From assembly GCA_037200125.1 (NCBI GenBank), contig JBBCGS010000002.1, positions 763,488 through 827,487 of the forward strand: a stretch of DNA of 64,000 nucleotides, given 5' to 3'. The translations under genes and the position numbers were made by a program. Shown piece by piece: positions 13,257 to 35,244 of this stretch. The notes beneath the pieces were generated by a model that made no database searches, had not been told where the DNA came from, and saw only the letters and a program-made list of their open reading frames with translations. Each line of letters begins with the position of its first letter. Within the stretch, counting starts at the first letter, position 1. The DNA is from Gammaproteobacteria bacterium. GTDB taxonomy: Bacteria > Pseudomonadota > Gammaproteobacteria > Steroidobacterales > Steroidobacteraceae.

Positions 13257-13258
13257 CG

Positions 13259-15194: not shown

Positions 15195-18100
15195 TTGTTC
15201 ACCCTTATCCGGAAGATACCGAAAAGGGGACAGCAGGAAGTGACAGGCGCACCGCGCCCCGCTACCGCCCAGGTAGCGACGGTCTCCGCAATGATTCTGG
15301 GCTCGGCGCTCATCCTCGCGCTGTGCTACGTGCTCTACCGCCACGAGGCCGCGCAAGCCGTCACCCGGCAGGAAGAACGCGAAATCGTCCGGGTGGACCT
15401 GCTCACGCAGTTGATGCAGGACCAGCTCAGTCCCGCCGTCACCCACCTTCGCTATCTGGCGGACGGCGATGCGCTACGCGGCTACCTCGAAAACGGCGAC
15501 GCCGGCGCGCTCGAACGCGCCGCGCGACGGGCCGCCTTCTTCAGCGTGGAAACGCCGATCTACGACCAGGTGCGCTTCATTGACGCGAGTGGGCAGGAGG
15601 TCTTCCGCATCAATCAGGGCGGCGCCCGGGTCCCGCCGGATCAGCTGCAGAACAAGGCCGACCGGCGCTATGTTCAGGAAGCGAACCGGCTCGCGGCCGG
15701 CGAGATCTATATCTCCGCATTCGATCTCAACATCGAGAATGGGCGGATCGAGCAGCCGCTCAAGCCCACCGTGCGGTTCGCCATCCCGGTGTTCGATGCC
15801 GCGGGCCGGCGTCGCGGCGTATACGCCATCAATTTACTGGGGGGCCAGGCGATCACGCGGCTGCGGGAAGCCTCTTCGACGTTCGGCCATCGACTGCGAC
15901 TGCTGAACTCGCGCGGCTACTGGCTCAAGGCGGCGGACCCGAATCTCGAATGGGGGTTCGTGCTCCCGGACCGCGCTGAGTACACGCTGGCGCGGTCCGA
16001 CCCCGCATTGTGGTCGCGGATGGTGGCGCGGACCAACGGCCAGCTCACGACCGACAACGGGATTTTCACCTGGAAGAGACTCACGTCCGCGAACTACGTG
16101 CGTGCCGGCATAAGCGTTCGCAGCGACGACCCTTACCTCATCATGGCGTCCGAGGTACGCGGCGCCGAGTGGGACGCGCTGACCGTCGCGCCTCAGCGAA
16201 TCTACAGCACCGTCGCCGCGGCCCTTTTATTGCTCATGCTGATCAGCGTGTGGCTGTTTCGTGGCCGCCTGCTCGCGATGCGCGAACTGCGCGCCGCGAA
16301 TGACCGGCTCGAGCAGCGGGTCACCGAACGCACAGCGGAACTGGGCAAGACGCTCGAAGAACTGCGCTACCGCGAGGAGTTGCTGGAAGAGACCGGCCGG
16401 CTCGCAAGCGTCGGCGGCTGGGATTTCGACCCCGCCACCGGCGCCGGTCGCTGGACGACGGAAGTCGCGCGCATTCACGACCTCGATCCGGCGAAAGAAC
16501 CGAACAAGGAACTGGGGCTCACGTTCTATCCCGGCGAGTCGCGCCAACGGCTCCAAACCGCGCTTCAGGAGGCCCTGACGCACGGCACGCCGTACGACCT
16601 CGAGCTGGAGTTCGTCAGCGCGCTCGGCGTGCGCAAGTGGGTACGGACCATCTCGCGTCCGGTGATGCATGAGGGCAAGGTCGCGCATATGCGCGGCGCC
16701 TTGCAGGACGTGACGGCTCGCAAAGTGGGCGAGCTGAAGCTCAGCGCACAGTTGCAGCGGCTGCGATTGCTGGAGCAGATCACTCGCGCGATCGGCGAAC
16801 GGCAGGATCTCCCGAGCATCCTGCAGGTAGTGGCTCGCACGCTCGAAGAAGAGCTGCCGTTGGATTTCTCCTGCGTGTTTCTCTATCACGCCGACGAACG
16901 CATGCTCACCGTTGCCGCGGTGGGGTTCGCAAGCACACAGCTCGGCGAAGCGATGTCCCTCGTCGATCACGCGCGCATTCCCATCGACGAGAACGGGCTG
17001 TCCCGCTGCGTGCGCGGCCGGCTCGTGTACGAACCCGATATCGCCGAGCATCACTTCCCGTTCCCTCAACGGCTGCTGGCCGCCGGCCTCCGAGCCATGG
17101 TGGCGGCGCCGCTGCAGATCGAGAGCAAAGTCTTTGGCGTGCTCATCGCCGCGCGCCGCGAGCCAAACAGCTTCAGCAGCGGCGAATGCGAGTTCCTGCG
17201 ACAGTTGAGCGAGCACGTGGCCCTGGCCGCCAACCAGGCGCAGATGCACGGCGCGCTGGAACGGGCGTACGAAGAGCTGCGCACCACTCAACAGGCGATC
17301 ATTCAGCAAGAGCGGCTGCGAGTGCTTGGGCAGATGGCAAGTGGAATCGCGCACGACATCAACAACGCCATCTCGCCGATCATGCTCTACACGGATTCGC
17401 TGCTCGAGAACGAGACCGGCCTGAGCGAGCGAGCGCGAAGCAGTCTGCTCACCATCCAGCAAGCCGCGAGCGATGTGGCGGAAACCGTCGCGCGCATGCG
17501 AGAGTTCTATCGCGCACGCGACTCGCAGAGCGAGCTGCAGCCGATGCTTCTCAACGATCTGGTCCGCCAGACCATCGAGCTCACCCGCGCACGATGGGAG
17601 GCGATTCCTCAGCAGCGCGGCATCGTCATCGAGATCAGAACGGAGCTGGGCGTCCGAACGCAGGCCGCCCTGGGGATCGACAGCGAAACCCGCGAAGCGC
17701 TGACCAATCTCGTGTTCAACGCCGTGGACGCCATGCCTCGGGGCGGAACGCTCACGCTTCGCACCGGCACGCGCGCGGCGGACGGCCAGCCCGAGCGGGC
17801 GATGATCGAAATCATCGACACGGGCAGCGGCATGGACGAGCAGACGCGCCGCCGCTGCCTCGAGCCGTTCTTCACGACCAAGGGCGAGCGCGGCACGGGC
17901 CTGGGGCTCGCGATGGTGTACGGAGCCATGCAGCGTAATGGCGGCTCCATCGAGATCGATAGCGCGCCCGGCGCGGGCACCACGATTCGCCTGCTCTTCA
18001 CGATCGCCGGCGCATCGGAGAAGGCGAGCGACAGCGCCCTCTCCCTCAACGTGCCCTCCGGACTCACACTGCTGCTGGTGGACGACGACCCGACCGTGCT

Positions 18101-18458
18101 CAAGTCGCTGCGCGATACGCTCGAGCTGGACGGCCACACCATTCTTACCGCAAACGGTGGCCGGGACGGGATCGATGTGTTCCGCAGCGCCTGCCGCCCG
18201 GGCGGCCGCGCGATCTCAGTCGTCATCACCGACCTGGGCATGCCGCATGTGGACGGTCGTGCGATGGCAGCCGCGGTGAAGGAAAGCTCACCGCAGACAC
18301 CCGTCGTCATGCTCACCGGCTGGGGCGAACGGCTGATCGCCGAAGGCAACACGCCGAAACATGTGGACCGCGTACTGAGCAAGCCGCCGCGCATCCGCGA
18401 GCTGCGCAAGGTGCTCGCGGAACTGCTCGTTCCCGAGGGGAAGCAGGACCGCGCTTGA
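15195..18458 (+). CDS. Hybrid sensor histidine kinase (periplasmic Cache-like sensor, TM, coiled coil, PAS, GAF, HisKA, HATPase, C-terminal receiver)
   Basis: HisKA H-box GIAHDINNAISPI, N/G-boxes (NLVFNAVDAM, GSGMD, GTGLGLAMV) and receiver LLLVDDDPTVL...VVITDLGMP. The true start may be at MILGSALILALCY (about 15291). Confidence 0.9.
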   Translation: MFTLIRKIPKRGQQEVTGAPRPATAQVATVSAMILGSALILALCYVLYRHEAAQAVTRQEEREIVRVDLLTQLMQDQLSPAVTHLRYLADGDALRGYLENGDAGALERAARRAAFFSVETPIYDQVRFIDASGQEVFRINQGGARVPPDQLQNKADRRYVQEANRLAAGEIYISAFDLNIENGRIEQPLKPTVRFAIPVFDAAGRRRGVYAINLLGGQAITRLREASSTFGHRLRLLNSRGYWLKAADPNLEWGFVLPDRAEYTLARSDPALWSRMVARTNGQLTTDNGIFTWKRLTSANYVRAGISVRSDDPYLIMASEVRGAEWDALTVAPQRIYSTVAAALLLLMLISVWLFRGRLLAMRELRAANDRLEQRVTERTAELGKTLEELRYREELLEETGRLASVGGWDFDPATGAGRWTTEVARIHDLDPAKEPNKELGLTFYPGESRQRLQTALQEALTHGTPYDLELEFVSALGVRKWVRTISRPVMHEGKVAHMRGALQDVTARKVGELKLSAQLQRLRLLEQITRAIGERQDLPSILQVVARTLEEELPLDFSCVFLYHADERMLTVAAVGFASTQLGEAMSLVDHARIPIDENGLSRCVRGRLVYEPDIAEHHFPFPQRLLAAGLRAMVAAPLQIESKVFGVLIAARREPNSFSSGECEFLRQLSEHVALAANQAQMHGALERAYEELRTTQQAIIQQERLRVLGQMASGIAHDINNAISPIMLYTDSLLENETGLSERARSSLLTIQQAASDVAETVARMREFYRARDSQSELQPMLLNDLVRQTIELTRARWEAIPQQRGIVIEIRTELGVRTQAALGIDSETREALTNLVFNAVDAMPRGGTLTLRTGTRAADGQPERAMIEIIDTGSGMDEQTRRRCLEPFFTTKGERGTGLGLAMVYGAMQRNGGSIEIDSAPGAGTTIRLLFTIAGASEKASDSALSLNVPSGLTLLLVDDDPTVLKSLRDTLELDGHTILTANGGRDGIDVFRSACRPGGRAISVVITDLGMPHVDGRAMAAAVKESSPQTPVVMLTGWGERLIAEGNTPKHVDRVLSKPPRIRELRKVLAELLVPEGKQDRA

Positions 18459-18470
18459 AGAGGAGCCCCG

Positions 18471-19832
18471 TCAATACGAGGCGAGACTGTGGTCGCCAGG
18501 TGCGACGGCGGCGGTGGGCGCAAGCATCATCACCACCTTCGAGCGGGACGAGATCTTCGGTTGTTTCTTTGCCGGCACATACTCGTTCCAGACGAGGGCG
18601 AAACCGGCGCCCCATGGCGCAATCGCCGGGACCAGGGACCAGGGATCGCTGCGTGAAAGCCGATGCGCCTCTTCCCTCGGAGCGCCTGCGTCGTCGAACG
18701 TCTGGAAGTAGATTTCGTACTGCCCTTCGGTGTCGTCGGACCACGCTAGTCCCACGACACCACGATTCCACGCGAGGTACGCGCCAACGGAGCTACCACT
18801 CGATGTCGTGACCCTGTGGGCTCTCTGATCCACGGGGCTCTGGAACAGCGCGTCGGCATCACCGGCAAGCAAGTAGACCTCGGTGTTGCCATCGCGCGAG
18901 TCGAACCACGTCAGCGCGCCCTTGGCACCCTCGAACGCGATATCGGGATAGACGGACGCCGCTCCATCGTCATTCGAGAGGCGTTGTACTGAAACGGCGT
19001 CCGCTTCGGCGCGCACCAGATAGAGCTCGGATTGGCGCGTCCCGATCTTGGCATCGAACACCACCCATGCCCGCCCCTGGCCGTCCAGCGCGGCATTCAG
19101 GTTCCAGGTCGTGCGGCTCGCGACCGCCGCGCGCCGTCGGGGTACGACTTCACGGCCCTCGAGATCGAACCACGCGAACCACACGTCTGGCGCGTGGGGG
19201 CCCGAACCTTCGACCCAGGCGCAGAACACGCGATCGCCAGCGATGCGAATCACCGGGTTGCGCCCCATGTGGCCGTTGGCCGAGAGTCGTACTGTCCAGC
19301 GCGCGACGCCTTCACGTGTCCATGAGCCCAGGCGCGCCGTGAGCTCGCCGCTCCCGGGCATCTTGTCGTACCAACCTATGAAGATCTGGTCACGAGCCAT
19401 CTGCAACGACGGTTCATATGCGTTCCGTCGACCGTGGGTGAGCTGCAGCTCGCGCGAGACCGGCTCCGCGCCTCCAGTGAGACGCGCGAAGATCTGCGCG
19501 TACTTGCCACGGGTGTCGTACCACGCGACGGCGAGATCGCCGGTTCCCGGGGCGATGCTCGCCTCGTAGGCGCCGACATCCGAAGTGCTCATGACGAGGG
19601 GCGCGCCCGCCGCGACTTCGGCGCCCGATGCGCTCAATGCGCTCAATGCGCTCAATGCGCTCAATGCGCCCGATGCGCCCGATGCGCCCAATGCGCCCAA
19701 TGCGCTCGAAGCCGACGCCGACGCGCTGACCGAGGTGCTCGCGCCAACCGCGACAAATGCAAACGACGCGGCAACAGCCGCCACGGCCGCAAGCGCCGCT
19801 CTTATGCCCCGCCGGCCCGCGCGCCGTTCCAT
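18471..19832 (-). CDS. Secreted PD40-like (TolB-type) beta-propeller repeat protein with (S-A-L)n linker
   Basis: Signal peptide [28 protein letters not shown]. Repeated motifs AWYDTRG.., IGWYDKMPG.., FAWFDLEG.., LTWFDSRDGNTEVYLL, LAWSDDTEGQYEIYF fit the PD40 repeat consensus. The start overlaps the end of the CobN-like gene by about 30 nt. Confidence 0.7.
   Translation of the reverse strand: MERRAGRRGIRAALAAVAAVAASFAFVAVGASTSVSASASASSALGALGASGASGALSALSALSALSASGAEVAAGAPLVMSTSDVGAYEASIAPGTGDLAVAWYDTRGKYAQIFARLTGGAEPVSRELQLTHGRRNAYEPSLQMARDQIFIGWYDKMPGSGELTARLGSWTREGVARWTVRLSANGHMGRNPVIRIAGDRVFCAWVEGSGPHAPDVWFAWFDLEGREVVPRRRAAVASRTTWNLNAALDGQGRAWVVFDAKIGTRQSELYLVRAEADAVSVQRLSNDDGAASVYPDIAFEGAKGALTWFDSRDGNTEVYLLAGDADALFQSPVDQRAHRVTTSSGSSVGAYLAWNRGVVGLAWSDDTEGQYEIYFQTFDDAGAPREEAHRLSRSDPWSLVPAIAPWGAGFALVWNEYVPAKKQPKISSRSKVVMMLAPTAAVAPGDHSLASY
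19621..19710. repeat. 9-bp tandem repeat, about 10 copies (GCGCTCAAT/GCGCCCGAT/GCGCCCAAT)
   Basis: Directly visible. On the minus strand it encodes the in-frame (LSA)n / ALGASGASGALSALSALSALSASG linker of the PD40 protein. Confidence 0.9.
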
Positions 19833-22800
19833 CTGGAATGCCACCGTGAACGCCACGCAAACAGGAACATCAGCAGCGGGAGTGCGATCCACAGGAAGTC
19901 CCACGGCGTGTCGCGCACGAGCGCGCGGCCCTGGCTCACGGCCTGCGTGGCCTTCTGCTCCTGCTCCATCAGATAGCCGCGAAGCTGCGTGCTCGCGCCG
20001 ACGGGCGTCGCTTTCTCACCCGGTGCCTTGCCGTTCGCCGCGCTGCCAGCGGCTTTGCTGTCACTCGCCGCGCTGCTGGCCGTTTTGCTGTCACTCACCG
20101 TGTCCCTAGCTGCTTTGGTGTCACTCACCGCGCCGGCGGCGTTCGCCTGTGCGTACCGCGCTTCGTTCTGCTTCACGAACGCTTCAGCCGCACGCGCCGC
20201 CACCGGAATACTCCTTCGAATCTGCACCTCCATGGATTCGCGGAACCGCTCCAGCGCCGGCGCCGGCACATTCAACTCGCGACCGCGATCGAGCACATAT
20301 TCGAGCAGGCGTGGATTGCCGCACGTGAACTCGGCGCAACCGACGCCGTGCTCCTGCACGCTCTTCACGTATTCCTCGATCAGCCTTGTTTCGGTGGCGG
20401 CGTCGGCCTTCCAGTAGCCTTTGCGAATCGTCTCCACCATGCGCGCCGTCATGTCCTGATACGCGAAGGGCGAGTCCTTGTCGAAGAACGCTTTCAGCCC
20501 GAGCTTGTGTTTGTCCTGCACGTAGACGTCGAAGGTTTCCTTCCACATCGCGTCGTCGACAAGATCGGGCGCGGTCGCCTTCCAGCCCCAGAGATACTCG
20601 ACGAACGCGCGCATTTCGCCCGCGCCCGCATAGCCCTCCTTCTTCATTCCCTCGATCCACGTCGGGTTGACGTAGCGCGAGCGGAACTCGGTGCCGAGGA
20701 ACTCGTCCATCGAGGTCATCTGTGGCTTGCTGGGATTGCGAGTGTTCGTCACCACCATCTCGGGGCTCTTCCCATCGAGACTGCGGATCGCGTTCGCAAG
20801 ACCGCCCATGTACATGAACATGTCGTCGTTATCGAGCGCGCCGTACAGCATCGTGGAACTGCTGTGCACGACTTGGTCCGTGCCAGAGAGCGCCATGCGA
20901 AACACATCCGGCATCGCCTCGCCCCAGAAGCCATTGCCGTAGCCGTGACCCAGCTTGTTGATATAGTCGTCCGCCATGCCGCGATCGGTATCCCAGGTGC
21001 CGCTCGCCGCCGCGATCGTCGAGGTGTTCAGGTTGAACTGGCCGGGGGGCTCATCGAAGATGCGCACGCCGGCGTACCGATCCGCATCCTTCTCGCTGTA
21101 GCCCTTCGCGATGAGCGTGGCTTTCGCTTTCAGGTAGTGCTGGCGCACGAGGTTTTCCGCCTCGTCCATCGCCTTCACCTTCTGCACGGCATCGTCCATC
21201 AGGCGCGTGACGTTGTTGAACATGCCCTCGGCCGCCGAGGCGATGACGATATCGACGCGCGGCCGCTTCAGCTCCCGGCGCGGTATCACGCTGACGCCGA
21301 CGACTTTGCCGCGCACATCCCACACCGGTTTCGTGCCGAGCAGATGGAAGATCTGCGATTCGAGCACGCCTTCGTGCCGCATCGTCTCGTCGCCCCAGAT
21401 CACGAACGAGACTTTCTCGGGATAGCGCCCGTGCTTCGCCACGTATTGGGCGAGCATGTCGTCGGCGAGCTTCACGCCGAGCGCATACGCGGCGGGCTTG
21501 GGCACCTTGTCCGGATCGATGCCGAAGAAGTTCTTGCCGGTCGGGTAGGAGTCCGGGTTGCGGATCGGCTCGCCGCCAGTGCCTCCCGGGAGGAAGTGAC
21601 CCGATAGCGCACGCACGAAGTTACCAAGCTCCGCCGCGCCACTGGCGACAATCCGCTGCTCCATGTCGCCTGCGGCAACCTTCGCCTTGTTCGGGAGCAG
21701 GCTTCGATCGGCGCTCACGATCGCATCGATGGTGCTCTCGCGCAGCGGCTTCTCCGGCGTCAGCCCGAACGTGTGGAGCCCATAGGGAATGTTCTCGTTC
21801 TTCAGCACCAGCAGCTGATTCTCGACGCGATGAATCGCTTCATCGTCGAGCGGCTTCGTCGGGTCGAGGCCGAGATCCTTGGCGAGGCCCAGCTTCGCAA
21901 CCTGCTCCGTAATCGACTTCGCGTATGCTTCGGCAAGCTGCGGATTCTTGGTCTCATTCACCGAGTGATCGTTGATGGACTCGCTCAACGCCGCGAGATC
22001 CGCATACAGCCCGCCCTTCTTGAACGGCGGCACCATGTGATCCACGAGCGCCGCCATGCCGCGGCGTCGTGCAACGAGCCCTTCCCCGACCACATCGACG
22101 TTGTAGATGTAGATGTCTGGAAGGTCGGCAATGAGCGCATCGGGCGCGTCTTCCTCGGAGAGCCCGGCATCCTTGCCGTCGAGCCATTCGAGCGTGCCGT
22201 GGGTGCCGACATGCACAACCGCGTCGGCTTTGAAGCTGTTCTTCAGCCACGCATAACTGGCGACGTACTGATGATGAGGCGCGAGATCCTTCGCGTGATA
22301 CATCTTCTCCGCATCTTCACCCCAACCGCGCGCCGGCTGCGGCATGAGGATCACGTTGCCGTACTGGACGCGCGGAATGACGAGCGACATCTCGCCGCGT
22401 TCGGACGTGGTCATCAATTTCGTGCGCGACGGCGGCCCCCAGTCGTTCACGATCTTGTCGCGCAAGGCCGGCGGGAAACCGTCCAGCCAGCGCGTGTATT
22501 CCTTCACGCTCACCTGCGCCGCTCCGCCGTGCGTGAGCAATTCCGCCAGCTCACCGGGCGCGTAGCCGCCGACGTTGCGCGCCTTCGTCGTGATGTCGCT
22601 CAGCACACTCTTCGCCGCAAGATCCGCGTCGCCGAGGTCGTAGCCCTCGCGCTTCAACCGCTGAAGCATTCGCGCCAGCGATTCGGCGACGTTGAGATAG
22701 CTCGCCCCGATGTTCGCCTTACCCGGCGGGTAGTTGTAGTAAAGGATCGCGATGTGTTTATCCGCGTTGCGCTTCGAGCGCAGCGTGGCGTAGCGCAGCC

Positions 22801-23902
22801 CGCGCGCCACCGCCATCGAGACCCGCGACGGAATCGGATGCGTGACGACCACCGCGAGCCCGGTCTCCCGATCGCGCACTTTTTCCTTGCTGCCGACCAC
22901 GGTCGGCGCGACGGTCCCGGCCAGTTCCGGCACCGCCATCAGGAACGTGCCTTCGAACATCGAGAGCCCGGTCGCGGAGGATCGCCACTCCTTCTCGCTA
23001 CGCCCATAGAGGCTCACGAGGTTGATGATCGGCACATCGACTTTCGCCAGCACGTTCGACGAATCGAAATCCGCGAAGTTGAAGATGAATCCGAGCGCGA
23101 CATCCGCGCGCGCCGCGCCGTGCTCGTCCAACAGCATCTTCTCGGTGGCGAACGCGCCGGGATAGCCGAAATACGGAATGGCGTCGGCGCCCTGCCGCTC
23201 CACTTCCGCGATCATCGAATCGAGCAGCTCGGTGTCGCCGGTGTAGTAAGTCGACTTGTAGAAGCCGATTGCGACGCGTGGGCGGCCGGCGTGCGCCTTG
23301 CCGTTTTCACGGCGCCACGCGTCGAACTCATTCCAGGTGGCGAAAGCTCGCCCGCCTGAGGCGGAAGGGTAGTAGTAGCCGAAGTCCAGACTCCGCTCGG
23401 GCTCGGGCACCGTGAGCCCGGCAACGCCGGCCTTGGTGAGCGCGTACTTCATCAGCGCGAGCTGGTTGGTGGCACCCGCATGAGCCCAGTACGCGCGGGC
23501 GCGAGCATCCCAATCGACACCTTGTTCGAGATACCGCTCCTTCGGCAGCAGGCCCTCGCCGACGCCGAGAACCACGCCGTGACGACGCACGTCGGCGAGC
23601 AGGTCCACGCTATGCGCCTGGTTGAAGCGCTCGAGCATCTGCTCGTTCATCGTGTCGAGCACGAGCACGTCGGCGCCGGTCATCGCCTTCGCATCGGTTT
23701 CGTCGAACACGGATTCGGCGAGATAACCGAGAGTGACCTGGTCCTTGAGATCCGGCCGCTCGGCGAGCAGTTGCCGGTAAGCGCGCACCGTGCCGGGGAT
23801 GTTGCCGTCGGAATAGAGATAAACGATGCGAACGGGCTTCGCGACGGCCGCGAACGCCATGAACAGCAGCACTAGCGCAAGACTAAGGCTTCGCACCCGC
23901 AT
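19802..23902 (-). CDS. CobN/Mg-chelatase-H-like large chelatase subunit, extracytoplasmic: N-terminal signal peptide, C-terminal TM anchor (HmuS-like)
   Basis: CobN-family homology along about 1300 aa (e.g. [42 protein letters not shown]). N-terminus [21 protein letters not shown] is signal-like. C-terminus has an Asp/Ser/Lys low-complexity region then the TM helix [20 protein letters not shown] at 23902 verified; 23932 ([10 protein letters not shown]..) is an alternative. The ORF track's extension to 24121 is read-through of the hexanucleotide repeat. Confidence 0.85.
20044..20132. repeat. Three imperfect copies of an approximately 30-bp repeat (..TTTGCTGTCACTC(A/G)CCG..)
   Basis: Directly visible. 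It encodes the [29 protein letters not shown] low-complexity segment just before the C-terminal TM anchor of the CobN-like protein. Confidence 0.7.
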
Positions 23903-24458
23903 CACCCGGCGGCTGTGCGCCACTGGCGCCATCGCTTGGGCCGCCTCTGTCTCGGCCCCCGGCGCCAGTGCCGGTGCCAGTGCCAGTGCCGGTGCCAGTG
24001 CCAGTGCCGATGCCAGTGCCAGTGCCAGCGCCAGTGCCGGTGCCGGTGCCGGTGCCAGCGCCGGTGCCAGTGCCGGTGCCAGTGCCGGTGCCAGCGCCGG
24101 TGCCAGCGCCGGTGCCGGCATCCGCGCCTTCCGGCACGTAGATGACCTGCCCGTTCGCGAGCCGATACGCCACGCCGAGTCGCTCGCCGTTACCGGACAG
24201 CGCCTTGTCCGTCACCTTGTACGCTTTGATCTCGGTGCCCTTCTTCGTGATGATCTCGCGCTCCCCTTGCGCATTCGTCTTCACGAGCGTCACTTCGCTT
24301 TGCGCATCGACGAGATCGCCCATGCGATAGACGGAGAACAGCGTGATCATCAAGCCCACGATGAACACGATCGACACGTCGAACAGGTTCGCGACACCCG
24401 CGAGGGGATCTTCCTCAGGCGGTTCGTCCGGCGGCGGCAGTCGAAGAAAGCGACCCAC
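23883..24458 (-). CDS. DUF2149-family protein (ExbD/TolR-like partner of MotA/ExbB-type channels) with C-terminal (Gly-Thr/Gly-Ala)~28 tail
   Basis: N-terminal TM helix ([17 protein letters not shown]) and an about 110-aa core typical of DUF2149. The ORF reads without a stop through the GCCGGT/GCCAGT hexanucleotide repeat, giving ...[19 protein letters not shown]...[27 protein letters not shown]. Confidence 0.7.
23962..24120. repeat. Hexanucleotide tandem repeat (GCCAGT/GCCGGT/GCCAGC), about 27 copies
   Basis: Directly visible. One minus-strand frame gives the (GT/GA)n tail of the DUF2149 protein. Another gives a (PA/LA)n peptide in frame with, and upstream of, the CobN-like start. Confidence 0.95.
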
Positions 24459-24474
24459 GGTCAGACGCTCGCGC

Positions 24475-25119
24475 TCATCGGGCCTCGCCTGCCAGATGGC
24501 CTACCGGCTGGCCCGCCAACTCGCCCGCCACACGCTCGGCGAGATAGCGCTGTTCGCGCACCGCTTCGCTGGCCCACTTCTGGCGGATGGTGGTTACGAC
24601 ATAGGCCGCCGTCCCCGTCGCAAGCCCGATGATGGTCGTCGTGAACGCAACCACCATCTGCCCGGCCATCGCCTGCAGATTGCCGCTCGAGAGTGACGCG
24701 AGCGAGGCGCCCATGGGAATGAGTGTGCCGATGAGGCCGAGACTCGGACCAATGCGCACCAGCGCCCGCGCGAGATTCGCGCCGTGACGGGCCCGCTCTT
24801 CCTGCTCGAGCACGAGGTTCTCCAGATCGCCGCCGCCGAGCGGACCCTGCGCGACGCGCCCCGATACCTGCTCGACCAGCCCACGCAACGCCAGCGGCAA
24901 CTCGTTTCTGCGCTCGACGCTGGCGGCAAGCACCGGCCCCTTGTCGAGCCAGCGCGAGAGACGAAAGTCCCCGCGATCCCGCCGCCGCGCCAGCCACTCC
25001 ACCACGCACGCGGCGCCCACGAAGATCGTGGCGAACACGCACAGCCACAGCAGCACCATCACCGGGAATCTCAGCACCTGCCCCAACGCGAACAGGCCGT
25101 TTTCAAGCATCGACAACAT
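24475..25119 (-). CDS. MotA/TolQ/ExbB proton-channel family protein
   Basis: Three TM segments and the conserved C-terminal channel region [21 protein letters not shown]...[15 protein letters not shown]. 214 aa. Confidence 0.85.
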
Positions 25120-25121
25120 CG

Positions 25122-25742
25122 TCAGTTACGCCTCCAGCGTCGCGAGGCCGCGCCAGCCAGCGCGACCGCACCCACGCTCACCAGAACCCAAACCGGAATC
25201 GCGGTCGCCGCTTCCCCACGCGCCGAGGCGTTGAGCACCATCGCCGAAGTCCAGCCCGAGAGGACCTCGGGCACGGCGGCGAGGCAGATGCCCGACGCCA
25301 GCAGGAACAGCGCCGCCTCGTCACGAAGCTTGCGCGGCGCAAAGTCCGGCCGCAGCGCCACGAGCCCCGCGGCAAGCACCGGGAGCATCGCGCAGCACGG
25401 GAAGGCGATCATGGCCGGCGCGCCCTGGCTGACGAGAAAGGCACCGCCCTGCGCAGCGATGAAGCCCCCGCCGAGCAGCGCCACACCGTTTGCTATCCGG
25501 TACCACCTCGGCTGCCGCAAGTCGCCTTCAGGAGTCCCGACAAGTTGTATCAGCGCGAGCGACGCAATCAGGGCCGCGAGCACCACAGGCGGCACCTGCC
25601 ACTCCCCGATGAACAGCACCAGCCCCGCGCCAAAGCCGGCAATGAGCAGCGGCCCGACCAGACTGTGCCGAATCGCAGGCGCACCCGCCGCAAGCACCAC
25701 CGAGGCCAGCGCGAACAGCGTCCAGAAAGTGAAAAGACTCAT
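25122..25742 (-). CDS. Polytopic inner-membrane protein (6-7 TM), first gene of the CobN-like operon; possibly the DUF2162-type companion of DUF2149/ExbB-like proteins
   Basis: Almost entirely hydrophobic, 206 aa. Its stop is 3 nt before the ExbB-like start. I did not recognise a family at sequence level; the assignment rests on context only. Confidence 0.55.
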   Translation of the reverse strand: MSLFTFWTLFALASVVLAAGAPAIRHSLVGPLLIAGFGAGLVLFIGEWQVPPVVLAALIASLALIQLVGTPEGDLRQPRWYRIANGVALLGGGFIAAQGGAFLVSQGAPAMIAFPCCAMLPVLAAGLVALRPDFAPRKLRDEAALFLLASGICLAAVPEVLSGWTSAMVLNASARGEAATAIPVWVLVSVGAVALAGAASRRWRRN

Positions 25743-26016
25743 GGGTCGATCATCAACCGAGCGGTCCGCTCTTATTCAGCCAACGTACCGTCGCGCCGCT
25801 GTACGGTTTTGAAGTTAGGCGCAACCAACATATAGTCCGCGCCCACGAGCTCCGCTGTCGCCCTGTTACCGTTGATAAACATCTCGTGACGTAGGGCTTT
25901 TTCCGCAGAAACGTAGCGTAACGTCGCAGCGGCAGCGGTCTATCGCTTTTAACTTTTCAGCCGCACGACGCCCCGCCCATACTTGCGGCTATAACGAGAC
26001 CATCCTTAGGGATCCC

Positions 26017-27975
26017 ATGCACAAGAAGACTACTGCAGTCGGCGCAGCCGCCTGCCTCTTTGCCGTACCCGGCACCCTCCTCGCCCAGACCGCCCCGAAG
26101 GCCGATGACCTGAACGAAGAAGTCGTCGTCACGGCAACCCGCGCGGGCGACGGCATCCGTGCCGACCTCCTCGGCACCTCGTTCACGGTGCTGACGCCGG
26201 CGGACCTGGAACAGCGCCAGACCCGTTACCTGTCGGACATCCTCCGCGACGTGCCGGGCATCGCCGTCAGCCGCAGCGGCGGGGCCGGTCAATTCACCCA
26301 GGTCCGCATCCGCGGCGCCGAGGGCAACCAGACGCTGGTGATGATCGACGGCATCAAGGCGAGCGACCCGTACGCGGGCGAGTTCGACTTCGCGACCCTG
26401 ATCGCCGATGACGTGGCGAAGGTCGAGGTGCTGCGCGGCCAGCAGAGCGCGCTCTACGGCTCGGACGCGATCGGCGGCGTCATCAACTACATCACCCTCA
26501 CCGGCAGAGAAATGCCAGGCACACGCCTGCGGCTCGAGGGCGGCTCCTTCGGCACCGTCGATCTGTCGGCCCGCACGGCCGGGGTCGCGGGGCCGCTCGA
26601 CTACTCGCTGAGCGCCGGCTACCAGAACACCGATGGCACGCCGACGGCGCGGAACGGTTCGCGCGACCTGGGCTCGGACAACACGGCGGCCTCCGCCAAG
26701 CTCATCTATTCAGTGAGCGACGACGCCCGCGTCAAGGCGGTCGTGCGCTACAGCCGCACCAAGGCGGACGCGAACGATCAGGACTTCAACTTCCCGCCGG
26801 GCCCGAACTACGGGTTCGTCGTCGACTCGCCGGGCAGCTACTACGAGAACCGCGCCGTATATGGCCTGCTGCGAGGAGAGCTCGACACCTTCGGCGGCAA
26901 CTGGTCGCACGCCCTTCAGGTGCAGGGCGTGGACGCGAAGCGCGATGGCTTCTCCAATAACGACTTGAGCGGTGGCGACGACGGTGGACGCCAGCGGTAT
27001 TCCTACGAAACGACGGTGCGTTTCGGCAGCGACGCCGTGAAGCAGAGCCTGACTGGCGCGCTCGACTACGAGCGTGAGACTTTCCAGAATCGTGGCCCCT
27101 TCCTCACCGACGAGCAGGGTCTCGAGCGCAGCCTGACCACCAAGGGCGTGGTAGCGCAGTACGAAGCGATCATCAATGACCGCATCGGCCTCGGCGCCTC
27201 GCTCCGCTACGACGACAACAGTCGCTTCGACAGCGACACGACGTATCGGCTGCAGGGCAGCTACAAGCTCGATAGCGGCACGCGCCTGCACGCCGCGGCG
27301 GGCTCGGGCACCAAGAACCCGGGGATCTTCGAGCTCTTCGGCTTCGACCCGGATACCTTCACCGGCAATCCGAATCTCAAGCCCGAAAAGTCGCACGGCT
27401 GGGAAGCGGGCGTGGAGCAGAGCTTCCTCGACCACCGCGCGCGCATCGACGTGACTTACTTCGACAACAAGCTGCGCGACGAAATCTTCACGACATTCGA
27501 CGCGAACTTCTTCTCGAGCCCGCTGAACAAGCCGAACGACTCGACGCAGAAAGGCGTCGAAATATCGCTCAATGCGCGCATCGGGGACGCCTGGAGCATC
27601 GACGCAAGCTATACCCACCTCGATGCGAAGGAGTTCGACACCGCCACGCGGAAGATGGTCGAGGAAGTGCGGCGCGCACCGAACATCGCAAGCCTGAATG
27701 TCGGCTGGCGCGGCATCGAGCAGCGGCTCGGCTTCGATCTCACCGTGCGCTACAACGGCGCGCAGCTGGACAGCAACTTCACCCTCGTGATCCCGACGCC
27801 GCAGGTGCGGCTCGACTCCTTCACGCTGGTCGACCTGGGCGGCGATTTCAAGATCACCGACAAGGTGCAGCTCTACGCCCGCGTCGAGAACGCGTTCGAC
27901 GAGAAGTACGAAGAGGTCTTCACGTTCCGGACGCCGGGCCGTGCGGAATACGCGGGAGTGCGCGTCAGGTTCTGA
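26017..27975 (+). CDS. TonB-dependent receptor, BtuB/metal-chelate type (about 650 aa)
   Basis: Signal peptide, TonB-box-like EEVVVTATR, plug motifs (DILRDVPGIAVSRSGGAGQFTQVRIRGAEGNQTLVMIDGIKAS, VEVLRGQQSALYGSDAIGGVINYIT) and C-terminal Phe (..GVRVRF). Divergent from the CobN-like operon. Confidence 0.9.
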   Translation: MHKKTTAVGAAACLFAVPGTLLAQTAPKADDLNEEVVVTATRAGDGIRADLLGTSFTVLTPADLEQRQTRYLSDILRDVPGIAVSRSGGAGQFTQVRIRGAEGNQTLVMIDGIKASDPYAGEFDFATLIADDVAKVEVLRGQQSALYGSDAIGGVINYITLTGREMPGTRLRLEGGSFGTVDLSARTAGVAGPLDYSLSAGYQNTDGTPTARNGSRDLGSDNTAASAKLIYSVSDDARVKAVVRYSRTKADANDQDFNFPPGPNYGFVVDSPGSYYENRAVYGLLRGELDTFGGNWSHALQVQGVDAKRDGFSNNDLSGGDDGGRQRYSYETTVRFGSDAVKQSLTGALDYERETFQNRGPFLTDEQGLERSLTTKGVVAQYEAIINDRIGLGASLRYDDNSRFDSDTTYRLQGSYKLDSGTRLHAAAGSGTKNPGIFELFGFDPDTFTGNPNLKPEKSHGWEAGVEQSFLDHRARIDVTYFDNKLRDEIFTTFDANFFSSPLNKPNDSTQKGVEISLNARIGDAWSIDASYTHLDAKEFDTATRKMVEEVRRAPNIASLNVGWRGIEQRLGFDLTVRYNGAQLDSNFTLVIPTPQVRLDSFTLVDLGGDFKITDKVQLYARVENAFDEKYEEVFTFRTPGRAEYAGVRVRF

Positions 27976-30218: not shown

Positions 30219-30956
30219 TCAAGGCTCTCCGGCGAGTTTCATTTCTGTCTGGGGCGGATGAGAGGCTTCGTGGAGGTAAACCGCCAGCGCGCGAATCTCC
30301 ACGAGACTCAGCGCCCTCCGCCATCCGGGCATGATGTGGCGCTGACCGTTGTAGATGGCATTGAAGAGCGCCTGCCGGTCGCCCCCGCTGTTCCACACAT
30401 TAGCGGTCAGATCCGGCGCCCCGTAATCCGTATTGCCGCGTCCATCCGGTCCGTGGCAATCGAAGCAACCCGCCGCTCCAAGAAACAGCTCGCGTCCGTC
30501 GGCGGCGGGCGCCGGCTGGAAGGCACGCCCGCTGAGTTGCAGGACGTACTCGACGACACTCTGGATCTGGGCGCTACTCAAGACTCCCGTCAGCCCGAAG
30601 GCAGGCATCGAGGTTATGTCGCGCCCCTTCGACTCTCCGGAACGAATGCCATACAACACGGTGCGTTCGATGTCGTAGACGTCGCCGCTGCCGTAGAGGG
30701 AAACGGCGTCGACGAGGTTTGGAGCGCCCAGGTCCGACCGGCCGCGCATGTCCGCGCCGTGGCAGGACGCGCAATGTTTCGCATACACGGGTGCCGCTTC
30801 GTCGGCGGCGAAGCGTACAAGGGCGGGGTCCGAGGCGGCAGCATTCGGCAACACTGACAGGAGGCGGTCTTCCATGCGAGCGTGCCGACCGTACAGCAGC
30901 GCGGCCACGACGGAGATGGAAATCAAAAGGACCAACAGTGCCGCGGTCTTTATCAC
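30219..30956 (-). CDS. Dihaem c-type cytochrome
   Basis: Two CxxCH motifs (CASCH, CFDCH) after an N-terminal membrane anchor/signal (VIKTAALLVLLISISVVAALL). GTG start at 30956. Its stop abuts the SurA-like start. Confidence 0.75.
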   Translation of the reverse strand: MIKTAALLVLLISISVVAALLYGRHARMEDRLLSVLPNAAASDPALVRFAADEAAPVYAKHCASCHGADMRGRSDLGAPNLVDAVSLYGSGDVYDIERTVLYGIRSGESKGRDITSMPAFGLTGVLSSAQIQSVVEYVLQLSGRAFQPAPAADGRELFLGAAGCFDCHGPDGRGNTDYGAPDLTANVWNSGGDRQALFNAIYNGQRHIMPGWRRALSLVEIRALAVYLHEASHPPQTEMKLAGEP

Positions 30957-31013
30957 GATCTGCGATGCCCTACACTCTGCGCTACTATACCGCGCCGCCC
31001 TACCGTAGCACCC

Positions 31014-32987
31014 ATGGTCACCCCCGAAACGGATCACACGAAGTCGGCCGAGCTCGTAGTGCCTCGCTCTCATCGCCTCGTGCGACGACTGGCCATGGTG
31101 TACGGAGCTCTCGCCCTCGCGATGGCCGGGCTGCTGTGCGCGGACGCGTTACCGCGCGGGATCGCGCTCCAAGCCGTCGCACATGAAGCGATCGTAGGTG
31201 GGCTCGCCGGGACGGTGCTGCCAACGCTGCTCCTTGCGTTGGCCGGCTTGCTCGGCACTCTTGCGCTGACGACCGCACGCTTCCGCTCCGGATCGCCCGC
31301 CGCCGCGAACGCCCGCTGGTCGCGACTTCTGCAGAACCCCGGATCCGCAGCGCGCCTCGGCCAGGCAGTCGTCATACCCGCCAGCGCGGTAGTCATCTAC
31401 GTGGTCGTGCGCTTGCTGTGGCCCGGCTCTGCTCCGTCGGTCAGCTCCACGAGCGCCAACATCGGTGGCGCGCTCACCTTCGCGCTGACGTTCACTTCAC
31501 TGGTCGCACAACGCACGATCGCGGAGTTCCCGGAACCGCAGTTGCCGGAAGCGCCGGCGCTACGTCGCTTGCTCCTTCTCGTGACCGTCCTGCTCGGAGT
31601 CGCCGCCTGTATCGAACTCGGTCGTGGCGCGATGCTCGATTGGGTGCGGTGGCCGCAGTACGCGATTGCGGTAGTCACGGTCCTGATTGCCGTTGAGCTT
31701 TCGCTGCGCGCGTTCGCACGCCTGTTCCTGCCGAGCCCTGCCGCCGCGAAGGCCAGAGCGGTGGTGGATAGCGTTCTGGTCGCTGCGCTCACGGGCCGCC
31801 CACGCTCACCCGGCTCGTTGTTACGCACCCACCTGGGCCTCGACTTCGCGCGCAGCTGGGCTCTCTCCTTCCTGAGCGCCGCCCTCCTGCCCGCGCTGTT
31901 GATCACGGCGTTGTTCTGCTGGGGCCTCACCGGATTGAAGCTCGTCGATCTCGGACACCGCGGTATCTACGAACGCTTCGGCGCCCCGGTCGAAGTGCTC
32001 GGCCCGGGTTTGCACCTGATACTGCCATGGCCCTTTGGGCGCCTGCGCCCCGTCGAGTTTGGCACCATTCACTCCGTGGCCATCGGCGTGGACAGCATGG
32101 CAAAGGACGACGCGCAGCAGATCGGTGCGGAAGATGTCCCGCAGGCCAGCCTGAATCGGCTGTGGGAAACCGCGCATTCCGGTCAGGCTTACTATCTCAT
32201 TGCGAGTCTCGGCAGCGGCCAGCAAGGCTTCCAAAGCGTCGCCACCGAGATCAGCGTGCTGTATCGGGTCGGGTTGTCGGACGAAGCAGCCCTGCAGTCG
32301 AACTACGCGGTCGCCGATCCCGAATCGCTGATTCGACAAGCGGGCAGCCGCATGGCGCTGCGCTACTTCAACTCCCGGACGCTCGAGTCGGTGCTCGGCG
32401 CGAGTCGCGAGACGGTGGCCGCCTCGATGCGTGACGCCCTCACCGCGGACGTGAACAGTCATCGCGCGGGGCTCGAAATCGTCTCCGTGCTGATCGAGGA
32501 AATCCATCCGCCCGCTGGCGCCGCCGCGGCTTATCACGCCGTGCAGGCGGCGCAGATCAACGCGAGCGCGAGCATCTCGAACGAGCGGGGGCGCGCGAAG
32601 CGCGTGGCCGGCGTCGCTCAGCAGGAGGCGCACCAGCTCACCGCGTCCGCCGATGCCACCGCCACCGAACGGTTGCGCGCGGCCGATGCCGATGCGTACC
32701 GTTTTGCCGCCGAGCGTCGAGCCCATGCGGAGGCCGGTCAGGCGTATCTGTTCGAGCGCTCGCTCACCGGCCTGCGGGCGGCGCTCGCGCAGAAACCGCT
32801 GATCCTGATCGATCATCGCCTGAGCGCGGCGCAAGCGCCGATCTTCGACCTGCGCTCCGCCGAACAGCAGAACGATACGTCCAGCGACCCGCTCAACGAG
32901 CTGCTATCGCCGCCGCCCGCGCCGGAAGGCGGCATACCGCCGAGCGCGCGCGAGCCGTTCGGGCCCGAGGCGCGGCCGTCGAAATGA
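31014..32987 (+). CDS. SPFH/band-7 (HflK-like) protein with large N-terminal polytopic membrane domain
   Basis: About 330 aa with 8 or more hydrophobic helices. Then an SPFH domain (LKLVDLGHRGIYERFGAPVEVLGPGLHLILPWPFGRL...) and an HflK-type Ala/Glu/Arg-rich coiled C-terminus. Confidence 0.75.
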   Translation: MVTPETDHTKSAELVVPRSHRLVRRLAMVYGALALAMAGLLCADALPRGIALQAVAHEAIVGGLAGTVLPTLLLALAGLLGTLALTTARFRSGSPAAANARWSRLLQNPGSAARLGQAVVIPASAVVIYVVVRLLWPGSAPSVSSTSANIGGALTFALTFTSLVAQRTIAEFPEPQLPEAPALRRLLLLVTVLLGVAACIELGRGAMLDWVRWPQYAIAVVTVLIAVELSLRAFARLFLPSPAAAKARAVVDSVLVAALTGRPRSPGSLLRTHLGLDFARSWALSFLSAALLPALLITALFCWGLTGLKLVDLGHRGIYERFGAPVEVLGPGLHLILPWPFGRLRPVEFGTIHSVAIGVDSMAKDDAQQIGAEDVPQASLNRLWETAHSGQAYYLIASLGSGQQGFQSVATEISVLYRVGLSDEAALQSNYAVADPESLIRQAGSRMALRYFNSRTLESVLGASRETVAASMRDALTADVNSHRAGLEIVSVLIEEIHPPAGAAAAYHAVQAAQINASASISNERGRAKRVAGVAQQEAHQLTASADATATERLRAADADAYRFAAERRAHAEAGQAYLFERSLTGLRAALAQKPLILIDHRLSAAQAPIFDLRSAEQQNDTSSDPLNELLSPPPAPEGGIPPSAREPFGPEARPSK

Positions 32988-33040
32988 GGACGCGCGATTT
33001 CATGAAGGCCCTTTACCCGACCGCCGCCGAGCCATAAGTC

Positions 33041-34153: not shown

Positions 34154-35244
34154 ACGAGCCGGCGCACACCGCTGGCGCGGGCGAACACCCGGAGCGGGTG
34201 GGACCGCCCCCGGTACCACCACCGGGTCCGATCGCGCAGTCCGTCGCCATCGGTTTTCGCGCGGTGTATGTGGCGGGCGTTTTGCTCCTGTTGCTCTGGT
34301 TGTTGAGCAACGTGCACGAGATCCCCTCCGATAGTCAGGCGGTCGTGCAGCGATTCGGTCGCATCGTCCGAACCAAGGAAGCGGGGCTGCTGATTGCCTG
34401 GCCGCGGCCCATCGAGCAGATCCGGCTACTGCCCGGGCCCGACAGGCAACTGAGCCAGGAAGTCGGAACGTTGCCGCCGGCAACGGAAAAGGCGCGAAGC
34501 CTGGTGGGGCCATTCGCCAAGACACAGTCGATGCCGGCGAATGCCTCGGCGTATCTCACCGGCGATGGCAACGTCGTACTCCTGAGCGCGGCGCTGATCT
34601 ATCGCATCAGTGACGCGACCCGCTACTCGCTAGCGCAGACGCACGTGTCGCCGGCGCTCGATCGCCTCTTCCACTCCGCAACGGTGCGCGTCACGGCGGG
34701 ACGGAACCTGAATGACTTTCTGGTCGTACAGACCGGCAGTCAAGGGGCCAACAGCGCCGCGATAGCCCTGCGCAGCGAAGTGCGCGACGCGCTTCTGCAA
34801 TCCATGAACGCGCGCCTGCATGAGCTCGCGAAAGGCGGCGCGTCCCTTGGAGTCGAAGTCGAACGCATCGACATGACTGCCTGGCTGCCTCCGCAGGCCA
34901 AATCGGCATTCGATGCGGTGCTGATCGCCACCCAGGCCGCCGATCGCGGCGTGGCGGTTGCGCGTACCGACGCGGAGCGGCGCCGGCAGGAGGCCAATCG
35001 CCTTCGCGATCAGTTGTTGAGCGGAGCGCAGGCCACCGCGCAAGAACTGCTCAGCAGCGCAAGCGTGAACACCGCGGGCATCCTCGCGCTCGAGCAGGAA
35101 GCAACGCCCCAGACACGCGGCACACTGCTCTTGCGGGAGTATCGTGAGCAGGTCACCAACATCATGAACCGCGCCGGATCGGCCACACTGGTCGATCCGC
35201 AAGGCGGAACGCGCCTCGTACTACCGGGAAGAAAAGCCAAATGA
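34150..35244 (+). CDS. SPFH/band-7 (HflK-like) protein
   Basis: ATGA overlap with the previous gene. N-terminal TM (AVYVAGVLLLLLWLL), an SPFH domain and an Ala/Arg/Glu-rich C-terminal region. Confidence 0.8.
   Translation: MNEPAHTAGAGEHPERVGPPPVPPPGPIAQSVAIGFRAVYVAGVLLLLLWLLSNVHEIPSDSQAVVQRFGRIVRTKEAGLLIAWPRPIEQIRLLPGPDRQLSQEVGTLPPATEKARSLVGPFAKTQSMPANASAYLTGDGNVVLLSAALIYRISDATRYSLAQTHVSPALDRLFHSATVRVTAGRNLNDFLVVQTGSQGANSAAIALRSEVRDALLQSMNARLHELAKGGASLGVEVERIDMTAWLPPQAKSAFDAVLIATQAADRGVAVARTDAERRRQEANRLRDQLLSGAQATAQELLSSASVNTAGILALEQEATPQTRGTLLLREYREQVTNIMNRAGSATLVDPQGGTRLVLPGRKAK

Follow-up and report, generated by a model that had tools for sequence, protein, structure and literature searches.

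A BtuS-type, predicted extracytoplasmic CobN-like chelatase locus in a Steroidobacteraceae genome and its candidate role in corrinoid or cobalt salvage

The window analysed here is a stretch of 64,000 nucleotides (64 kb) from a Steroidobacteraceae genome (Gammaproteobacteria; assembly GCA_037200125.1, contig JBBCGS010000002.1, positions 763,488 to 827,487) with a G+C content of about 65%. Its subject of interest is a locus that encodes a CobN-like chelatase homologue, a set of membrane and exported partners, and a TonB-dependent receptor transcribed in the opposite direction. An earlier note, made from the sequence alone, had listed six open reading frames (ORFs) for this locus; all six exist where it had placed them, and their G+C content at third codon positions (GC3, 0.75–0.88) represents a strong coding signature. 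The features of the locus are the following:

26017–27975, plus strand: BtuB-like TonB-dependent outer-membrane receptor, 652 amino acids (aa); Plug E = 1.7e-26, barrel E = 1.4e-39
25743–26016, no strand: divergent intergenic region, by its position holding the promoters of receptor and operon
25122–25742, minus strand: small polytopic inner-membrane protein MembX, 206 aa, first gene of the operon; hydrophobic, without Pfam or NCBIfam match
24475–25119, minus strand: MotA/TolQ/ExbB-like proton-channel protein, 214 aa; PF01618, E = 3.9e-12
23883–24458, minus strand: DUF2149 protein, 191 aa; PF09919, E = 2.2e-30
19802–23902, minus strand: CobN-like (BtuS-type) class I chelatase homologue, 1366 aa; PF02514, E = 1.9e-302
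18471–19832, minus strand: exported or membrane-anchored beta-propeller protein, 453 aa, last gene of the operon; AlphaFold pLDDT 88

The matches to the CobN, MotA_ExbB and DUF2149 profiles bear out three of the assignments made in the note. Overlaps between adjacent operon genes measure 20–31 nt in the window and 14–31 nt in close relatives, which fits a single transcription unit of the five minus-strand genes, as far as gene arrangement can tell. Among the ORFs of the window scanned with Pfam, no ChlI/ChlD or CobS/CobT-type gene was found and the sole AAA+ protein was FtsH, in agreement with the note's remark that an AAA+ partner is missing. No HmuY-type gene is present, and the ExbB-like/DUF2149 pair is accompanied neither by a TonB-like gene nor by a TolA or peptidoglycan-binding partner.

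Relatives were collected by scanning one genome per GTDB species, which yielded at least 592 matches; all locus counts given below refer to the best 79. These loci come from Vicinamibacteria and other Acidobacteriota, Steroidobacteraceae, Woeseiaceae, Pseudohongiella, Sphingomonadales, and Hyphomonadaceae, and a distant tier at 34–39% identity consists of Desulfobacterota-like metagenome-assembled genomes (MAGs), Deferribacteres, Gemmatimonadota, and Sphingobacterium. Neighbouring genes were counted by tblastn (DUF2149, ExbB-like, receptor, propeller) and by clustering (MembX, receptor). The CobN-like gene is adjoined by the DUF2149 gene in 66 and by the ExbB-like gene in 64 of the 79 loci (tblastn), a receptor gene lies near it in 33 loci by tblastn and in 47 by clustering, the propeller gene lies downstream in 29–31, and MembX is kept at the same position in 33 (clustering). 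The core of the system, whose CobN-like, DUF2149, ExbB-like, and receptor genes the note had proposed for comparison across genomes, is conserved in these 79 species-level loci. The other neighbours in the window that were checked (HupE_UreJ_2, rotamase, cytochrome c, three SPFH genes, P-type ATPase, CbtA/CbtB, histidine phosphatase, FtsH, and ZIP) appear in none of them, and in the closest relatives (CobN-like protein 77–84% identical) the six-gene core is kept while the flanks are wholly different. The flanking HupE, CbtAB, and ATPase genes were considered as a clue to the substrate and rejected, being conserved beside the operon in no relative.

The CobN-like protein matches the PF02514 CobN-Mg_chel profile over its full length (1006.6 bits, cut-off 24.5) and falls under all nine NCBIfam equivalog cut-offs for CobN/BchH (best 830.7 bits vs 1248). 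Its relatives in the PDB are HmuS (482 bits, the top match), CobN (466 bits), and ChlH (362 bits); by these scores it is about equally far from HmuS and CobN, with ChlH further away. The superfamily motif HxG(T/A)HG reads HVGTHGTLE in the window protein, where H568 is invariant; this superfamily-wide histidine corresponds to His-538 of HmuS (PMC12583661) and to H554 of CobN (bioRxiv 10.64898/2026.07.21.739949). The latter preprint, from 2026, describes two Co2+ ions in the putative active site of CobN and proposes critical residues, among which are H554, E593, and D1100, and these three were used here as the proposed Co2+-site residues. They align with H568, E607, and D1026 of the window protein, which are invariant in 17 family members.

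HmuS is defined by a different motif, LSLDHxxEFMGG, in which His-1209 and Glu-1212 lie opposite His-538 across the cavity (PMC12583661). In the aligned segment of the window protein, His-1209 is replaced by Asp1027 and Glu-1212 by Met1030, so that the DHxxE motif is missing. The LDNDD motif of the window protein resembles CobN, whose structures read LDSDDYYQFEGG or ADSDDYFQYHGG, and it occurs in 73 of the 81 CobN-like ORFs collected, the distant tier included; the only DHxxE in this collection belongs to the second paralogue of one locus (L035), which reads ISTDHPFEHLGG. HmuS residues 690–919, i.e., about 200 extra residues with a Met-rich insertion, have no counterpart, and the gap is bridged by window residues 722–743 (22 residues). 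With the N-terminal 341 residues (head/neck), a sequence search at E ≤ 10 brought up no HmuS match, and the similarity to the CobN neck was weak; in HmuS, head and neck hold a haem site with Met-79 and with His-254 in an HGR motif (PMC12583661). Since the DHxxE motif and the Met-rich insertion are absent, and the CobN Co2+-site residues and LDNDD are kept, the window protein is, as judged by these residues, not an HmuS-type haem dechelatase.

Locus L035, from a Caenibius genome, carries both subtypes next to each other (10001–14020 and 16619–22153). One is of the LDNDD type with the gene order ExbB-DUF2149-CobN; the other is the DHxxE paralogue, which is 30% identical to the window protein and has the order receptor-CobN-ExbB-DUF2149, as in hmu and in PA1922-25 of Pseudomonas aeruginosa. 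Because this paralogue differs in gene order, identity, and motif, two distinct subfamilies coexist in one genome, and the window protein belongs to the CobN-like one.

Topology was read from sequence features of the protein and its homologues, and the periplasmic placing is a prediction. The N-terminus consists of a 21-residue signal-peptide stretch followed by KP, and the C-terminus of a hydrophobic helix followed by RSRWHSRW. All homologues inspected (17 fetched proteins and 28 locus-derived ORFs, with riboswitch-linked and distant members) share this pattern: the N-terminus is positively charged and leads into a hydrophobic stretch and a small-x-small site, and the C-terminal helix is followed by an Arg-rich tail. 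The CobN-like protein is therefore predicted to be exported and tethered to the inner membrane with its bulk in the periplasm, which agrees with the extracytoplasmic chelatase that the note had proposed; a cytoplasmic AAA+ motor of the CobS/CobT kind could not reach it there. Extracytoplasmic placing has likewise been reported for HmuS and BtuS1/2 (PMC12583661, PMC6460266). The public annotation of the identical MAG protein (P0001, 1352 aa) begins at the second Met, 14 codons downstream (23861–23902), and with this later start the signal peptide is lost and the protein would appear cytoplasmic.

The receptor has E. coli BtuB as its best solved relative (full length, E about 1e-40), far ahead of CirA and PhuR, which match its plug only. 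Its best NCBIfam model is TonB-B12 (258 bits, under the cut-off of 599.7), and a TonB box (EEVVVTA) lies close to the N-terminus; the note's description as a divergent BtuB-like receptor stands. In the ExbB-like protein, the motifs GPSLGLxGTLIPMG and AFTTTIIGL are kept across 49 sequences. The DUF2149 protein has a single transmembrane helix and a conserved core of about 113 aa (24120–24458), to which an extra (GT/GA)n C-terminal tail is added (191 aa here vs about 117 elsewhere). Asp27, at the cytoplasmic end of the helix, is invariant in sets of 40 and 33 sequences, and ExbD, TolR, and MotB also carry an Asp at the start of their single transmembrane helix. The ExbB-like and DUF2149 proteins would in this respect match the logic of proton-driven stators. 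Between Acidobacteriota and Proteobacteria, DUF2149 is about 80% identical (P0241–P0360) vs about 65% for its CobN-like partner, which, as a sequence constraint, is unusual for a 117-aa bitopic protein. Its AlphaFold model (pLDDT 56.7, pTM 0.25; shallow alignment, homologues about 80% identical) was too poor for a fold search.

Two labels given in the note did not hold for the remaining partners. For MembX, which matches no Pfam or NCBIfam model, the note had pointed to DUF2162; MembX shows no profile similarity (hhalign probability 0.1%) to the DUF2162 proteins of distant loci, where DUF2162 occupies the MembX position. The propeller protein had been called a TolB-like PD40 protein. It has no Pfam or NCBIfam match, and the PD40 profile touches only 2 of 40 propeller homologues and not the window protein. 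The AlphaFold model (40 homologues, pLDDT 88) shows all-beta blades after an N-terminal helix and repeat linker, and the best Foldseek matches were CylK and sialidase propellers (TM 0.43–0.57, about 10% identity). The fold is a propeller, and the TolB/PD40 assignment was rejected on account of the missing PD40 match, the helix and linker in place of the TolB N-terminal domain, and the better CylK/sialidase folds. Three propeller homologues (P0128, P0131, and P0141) are PepSY_TM fusions, and PepSY_TM also occurs often as a separate neighbouring gene. PepSY_TM siderophore reductases act in ferric/iron reduction, and by analogy the fusions and neighbours hint at a periplasmic redox step.

In-frame tandem repeats lengthen low-complexity linkers in three of the operon proteins (DUF2149, propeller, and CobN-like):

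23964–24116: 12-bp repeat, 12.8 copies, encoding the (GT/GA)n tail of DUF2149
19621–19705: 9-bp repeat, 9.4 copies, N-terminal linker of the propeller protein
20038–20133: 30-bp repeat, 3.2 copies, C-terminal linker of the CobN-like protein

Cobalamin riboswitches (RF00174, 53–96 bits) were found beside the system in 10 of the 79 related loci. In four of these ten (L061, L053, L018, and L067), riboswitch and CobN-like gene share a strand, the riboswitch being upstream, and three combine such a same-strand riboswitch with a corrinoid adenosyltransferase or CbiZ gene. Receptors at the orthologous position carry a cobalamin riboswitch in at least 8 related loci. The arrangements are:

L061, all on one strand: riboswitch, receptor, DUF2162, ExbB-like, DUF2149, CobN-like, CbiZ
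L053 and L018: riboswitch, PduO-type corrinoid adenosyltransferase, receptor, CobN-like, propeller; gap between receptor and CobN-like genes about 23–30 nt
L010: riboswitch, receptor, ATP-binding cassette (ABC) ATPase, FecCD permease, Peripla_BP_2; divergent from the CobN-like operon
L025, L041, L022, and L048: riboswitch followed by receptor, divergent from the operon
L067: riboswitch about 1.4 kb upstream of the DUF2149 and CobN-like genes, same strand; intervening genes not called
L049: riboswitch upstream of FecCD and ABC ATPase genes, about 2.4 kb from the receptor

L039 contains an eleventh riboswitch, which is 9 kb off and not linked. The riboswitch-linked CobN-like proteins are 57–65% identical to the window protein, no farther than its nearest species-level relatives, and have the same topology. 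The ten linked riboswitches lie in about 1.45 Mb of related loci, well above the one or so per megabase that would generally be expected. In a further locus (L085, CobN-like protein 75% identical), the system sits amid riboswitch-controlled metE, nrdAB, and Rieske genes, with Peripla_BP_2 and PepSY_TM genes adjacent; its riboswitches are:

L085, 1894–2128, 5750–5980, and 18536–18744: three cobalamin riboswitches within 24 kb, at metE, nrdAB, and a Rieske/ring-hydroxylase gene

A Fur-family gene was also noticed near the CobN-like locus of L085.

On balance, the locus is read here as a BtuS-type extracytoplasmic module for corrinoid or cobalt salvage, a reading to which we give even chances. 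The link to corrinoids is drawn because riboswitches and corrinoid-salvage genes occur in orthologous loci, because the receptor is BtuB-like, and because the CobN Co2+-site residues are kept and the His/Glu motif of HmuS is lost. In the proposed mechanism, the BtuB-like receptor would carry into the periplasm a macrocycle that contains or accepts cobalt, most likely a corrinoid, and there the CobN-like enzyme, its C-terminal helix in the inner membrane, would perform cobalt chemistry on the macrocycle, either insertion or removal. The MotA/ExbB-like channel and DUF2149 would replace the AAA+ motor and put the energy of the proton gradient to use in the enzyme, the receptor, or both, the small polytopic membrane protein and the periplasmic beta-propeller would complete the machine, and the propeller-PepSY_TM fusion in some genomes would suggest a redox step. 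What the analysis shows is the gene set with its conservation, the topology signals, the active-site residues, and the linkage to B12 riboswitches and corrinoid genes in relatives; which substrate is used, in which direction the reaction runs, how energy is coupled, and that the window copy behaves like its relatives are inferred. As to direction, the CobN-like site and the salvage-gene neighbours would argue for cobalt insertion, and the analogy to HmuS together with the reductase link would argue for removal. The further claim that this clade would be the first enzyme to do cobalt chemistry on corrinoids outside the cytoplasm, i.e., a periplasmic CobN paralogue driven by a MotA/ExbB-DUF2149 proton motor, by which metal-free or unusable corrinoids could be rescued or corrinoids mined for cobalt, is put forward tentatively, and we consider it rather doubtful.

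Several observations weigh against a corrinoid or cobalt role. The riboswitch is present in only about 13% of related loci. In the window itself no Rfam family matches, and neither a cobalamin riboswitch nor any other B12 signal could be recognised. Even a permissive Rfam search (E ≤ 10) of 25500–26300 returned nothing, the leader of the 25743–26016 region folds no better than shuffled sequence (z-score −0.98), and the one sigma-70-like site in it, at 25809–25836 (plus strand), does not rise above chance. Removal of cobalt from a corrin is chemically hard and no enzyme is known for it; nor are metal-free corrinoids known to be common in nature. PepSY_TM neighbours are usually tied to iron reduction. 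L010 has a BtuCDF-type importer beside its receptor, so that import of intact corrinoids seems to occur there and the need for a periplasmic chelatase is left unexplained. HmuS, the sole biochemically characterised relative with the same partners, acts on haem (PMC12583661), and PA1922-25 of P. aeruginosa, with the same four gene types, is controlled by zinc (PMC4542158, PMC8531726, PMC9431628).

Regulatory signals other than B12 elements speak in the same direction. Six alpha- and gammaproteobacterial loci (L015 at about 6120–6145, L014 at about 7120–7150, L043 at about 6310–6335, L008, L007, and L058) share a GTAAATTACCGTTAC motif, located upstream of receptor or operon and scoring 17.6–23.6 (null maximum 12.9), which was not found in the window (score 5.1). 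Acidobacterial loci carry two to four direct repeats CTGAAGAnTTC (TGAAG-N6-TGAAG) in the same place (L016 at 8163–8240, L020 at 8045–8115, L075 at 8186–8215, L001 at 6768–6830, and others), and genes for a histidine kinase, a response regulator, and PepSY proteins lie near the repeats in several loci, also in L082. These repeats resemble response-regulator boxes of the PmrA/BqsR type, and by sequence the motifs point to two-component or other control in these other loci. Scans for Fur, Zur (three consensus forms), NikR, and Irr sites gave no convincing match in the window or the proteobacterial loci, the lone exception being a Fur-like site in L058 far from the operon. A TCATC-N8-GATGA dyad found in 18 loci was considered as a shared operator and rejected, as it lies in DUF2149 coding sequence; after masking of this coding sequence, a de novo search found no motif common to all loci.

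Among the alternatives, two are about equally placed, and both are improbable in our view. According to the first, the system is a counterpart of PA1922-PA1925 for uptake under zinc starvation, with zinc, or cobalt as a zinc substitute, taken up free or chelated. PA1922-25 has the same four gene types, is repressed by Zur, and is induced more than 100-fold by zinc depletion (PMC4542158, PMC8531726, PMC9431628), and three SPFH genes, a CPC-type IB2 ATPase, and a ZIP/ZupT-like transporter with an (HD)n loop lie within 10–22 kb of the operon, the SPFH-ATPase part being like the Zur-regulated PA2439-PA2435 hmtA locus in content and order. However, these zinc-type neighbours are conserved in no related locus, and neither the gammaproteobacterial nor the P. 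aeruginosa Zur consensus matches anywhere in the window, although either consensus may not be that of the host. Moreover, the order receptor-CobN-ExbB-DUF2149 of PA1922-25 and hmu differs from the ExbB-DUF2149-CobN order found here, and the L035 paralogue that does show it belongs to the distinct DHxxE subfamily.

The second, for which the prospects are similarly slim, is a non-catalytic escort: the ExbB-like and DUF2149 proteins would energise only the receptor, as a TonB-type system of its own, and the CobN-like protein would be a large periplasmic binding protein that takes up the imported ligand and passes it to an inner-membrane transporter, without inserting or removing metal. This would suit the hmu literature, in which HmuU and HmuV are drawn as powering the receptor and the head/neck domains of CobN are said to resemble periplasmic binding proteins (PMC12583661), as well as L018 and L053, in which the CobN-like gene comes after the receptor gene and neither an ExbB-like nor a DUF2149 gene is close by, and the finding that btuS mutants of B. 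fragilis still dechelate haem (PMC6460266). Against it, the cavity residues (HxGTHG, GEG, and LDNDD) are invariant across phyla, which is hard to explain without catalysis or metal binding, and the pair comes without a TonB-like gene while the TonB box of the receptor is ordinary. Finally, harvest of haem iron, in which an HmuS-type dechelatase would take Fe(II) out of imported haem on the periplasmic side, is very unlikely: HmuS is the top PDB sequence match, its topology and HmuU/HmuV-type partners are shared (PMC12583661, PMC10434189), and PepSY_TM proteins, with their link to ferric reduction, are frequent neighbours, yet the LSLDHxxEFMGG motif is replaced (73 of the 81 ORFs have LDNDD instead), the roughly 200-residue insertion with its Met-rich region and any detectable similarity to the haem-binding head/neck are lacking, no HmuY-type gene or Fur box was found, the receptor matches BtuB far better than haem receptors, and CobN scores close to HmuS.

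The kind of system is already known. CobN-like genes beside btuB-type receptors were named BtuS in 2003 in a comparative-genomics study ("CobN-like chelatase BtuS for metalloporphyrin salvage", Rodionov et al. 2003, J Biol Chem, as cited in PMC6460266). According to that citation, the window gene is like BtuS in its place beside a btuB-like receptor, in being predicted as exported and membrane-attached, and in the B12-regulon link of some genomes; it is unlike BtuS, as cited there, in the order ExbB-like, DUF2149, CobN-like, propeller, in LDNDD, and in its distribution over Acidobacteriota and Alpha-/Gammaproteobacteria. LDNDD, the gene order ExbB-DUF2149-CobN-propeller, and membership in the B12 regulon define the subtype. 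It is not described in the literature searched, and among the papers that mention DUF2149 none deals with the LDNDD clade.

The haem dechelatase HmuS belongs to hmuYRSTUV of Bacteroides thetaiotaomicron and Porphyromonas gingivalis (PDB 9d26; PMC12583661), and HmuS/BtuS2 was shown to have this activity in 2025. The hmu operon encodes the receptor HmuR, the CobN-like HmuS, the membrane protein HmuT, the MotA/ExbB homologue HmuU, and the DUF2149 protein HmuV (PMC10434189, PMC13227078), and these gene types match those of the window, as the note had suggested: receptor, membrane protein, MotA/ExbB homologue, and DUF2149 are encoded together. Shared with HmuS are the extracytoplasmic class I chelatase homology, the terminal membrane anchors, the want of an AAA+ partner, and the HxG(T/A)HG histidine; unlike HmuS, the window protein has no DHxxE, no Met-rich insertion, and no alignable head/neck, and no HmuY accompanies it. 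Compared with hmu, the order is ExbB-DUF2149-CobN instead of CobN-T-ExbB-DUF2149, a propeller is added, the receptor is BtuB-like, and the link is to B12 riboswitches, not to iron limitation. With the CobN of CobNST (PDB 7c6o, 9uk9), the protein shares the superfamily, the six-domain body, the three proposed Co2+-site residues, LDxDD, and the B12 regulon in several genomes; it differs in being exported and tethered, in scoring under the NCBIfam CobN cut-offs, in having no CobS/CobT nearby, and in its divergent head domain. PA1922-PA1925, compared by published description, likewise places receptor, CobN-like, ExbB-like, and DUF2149 genes in one operon, and differs in gene order, in Zur control, and in that no propeller or first membrane protein is reported. 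With ExbB-ExbD, TolQ-TolR, and MotA-MotB, the system shares a MotA_ExbB-family channel and a small bitopic partner with an invariant transmembrane Asp, but this partner is DUF2149, not ExbD, TolR, or MotB.

Class I chelatases are known as ATP-driven cytoplasmic machines, and among their extracytoplasmic relatives only HmuS has been characterised, for haem and in gut Bacteroidota. The clade described here is widespread in soil and marine Acidobacteriota and Proteobacteria, with at least 592 species-level matches and B12-regulon wiring in several lineages. If the protein acts on corrinoids, a periplasmic step would be added to B12 salvage. It would also be a concrete case of a chelatase powered by a proton gradient, and would help to make sense of the so far unexplained CobN-like genes in the Zur regulon of P. 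aeruginosa and in many archaea. For genome annotation, LDNDD vs DHxxE may serve as a simple sequence marker that sorts cobalt-type from haem-type members, and the locus is a lead for testing periplasmic corrinoid or cobalt chemistry and proton-driven chelatases.

The note had argued for a cobalt chelate or corrinoid rather than haem from flanking genes that it regarded as all Ni/Co-related. Its guess is supported by the evidence above, its reasoning is not, as these flanks are kept in 0 of 79 loci; the interpretation was right in outline, for the wrong reason. Of the flanking genes, those for CbtA (E = 9e-74) and CbtB do belong to cobalt-transporter families. The "HupE/UreJ" gene matches HupE_UreJ_2 weakly, the (HD)n tracts are found in an SPFH protein and in a ZIP/ZupT-like transporter, and the supposed P1B-4 ATPase has a CPC motif and passes the TIGR01512 cut-off (IB2, Cd/Zn), which makes it Zn/Cd-type and not P1B-4. 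Part of the flank (IB2 ATPase, three SPFH genes, and ZIP) looks, from its gene families, like a zinc-type cluster.

At 30882–37193 (plus strand), three SPFH/HflK-C-like genes are followed by the short CPC-motif IB2 P-type ATPase, which has a His-rich N-terminus, and a 6-bp repeat (33089–33159) gives rise to the (HD)n tract with which the second SPFH protein opens. In content and order, judged from the literature, these genes are similar to the Zur-regulated PA2439-PA2435 hmtA locus of P. aeruginosa (PMC4542158, PMC8531726). The gap between the ATPase gene and cbtA, which are convergent, contains a 13-bp tandem repeat (GGCTAACGATCTG x 5) that spans 37188–37253 and enters the 3' end of cbtA. The cbtB-cbtA pair (37241–38357, minus strand) has no cobalamin riboswitch in its 105-bp upstream region; the family is usually under riboswitch control.

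Two further receptor loci were noticed in the window. At 52963–57605 (minus strand), a second TonB-dependent receptor gene is followed by genes for two paralogous unknown proteins and a DUF6152 protein. The pair of unknown-protein and DUF6152 genes stands directly beside the CobN-like operon in 13–16 other genomes, often with genes for DUF6644 and a CxxCH protein, which suggests that the pair is functionally tied to the operon. At 6251–9396 (plus strand), another TonB-dependent receptor gene is followed by one for a PKHD-type 2-oxoglutarate/Fe(II) (2OG-Fe(II)) oxygenase, a PiuC-like pair, and an AT-rich element (TGCTAATACGAATGCTTCCTATTAG), possibly a Fur-type site, lies about 80–115 bp upstream of the start codon of this receptor gene.

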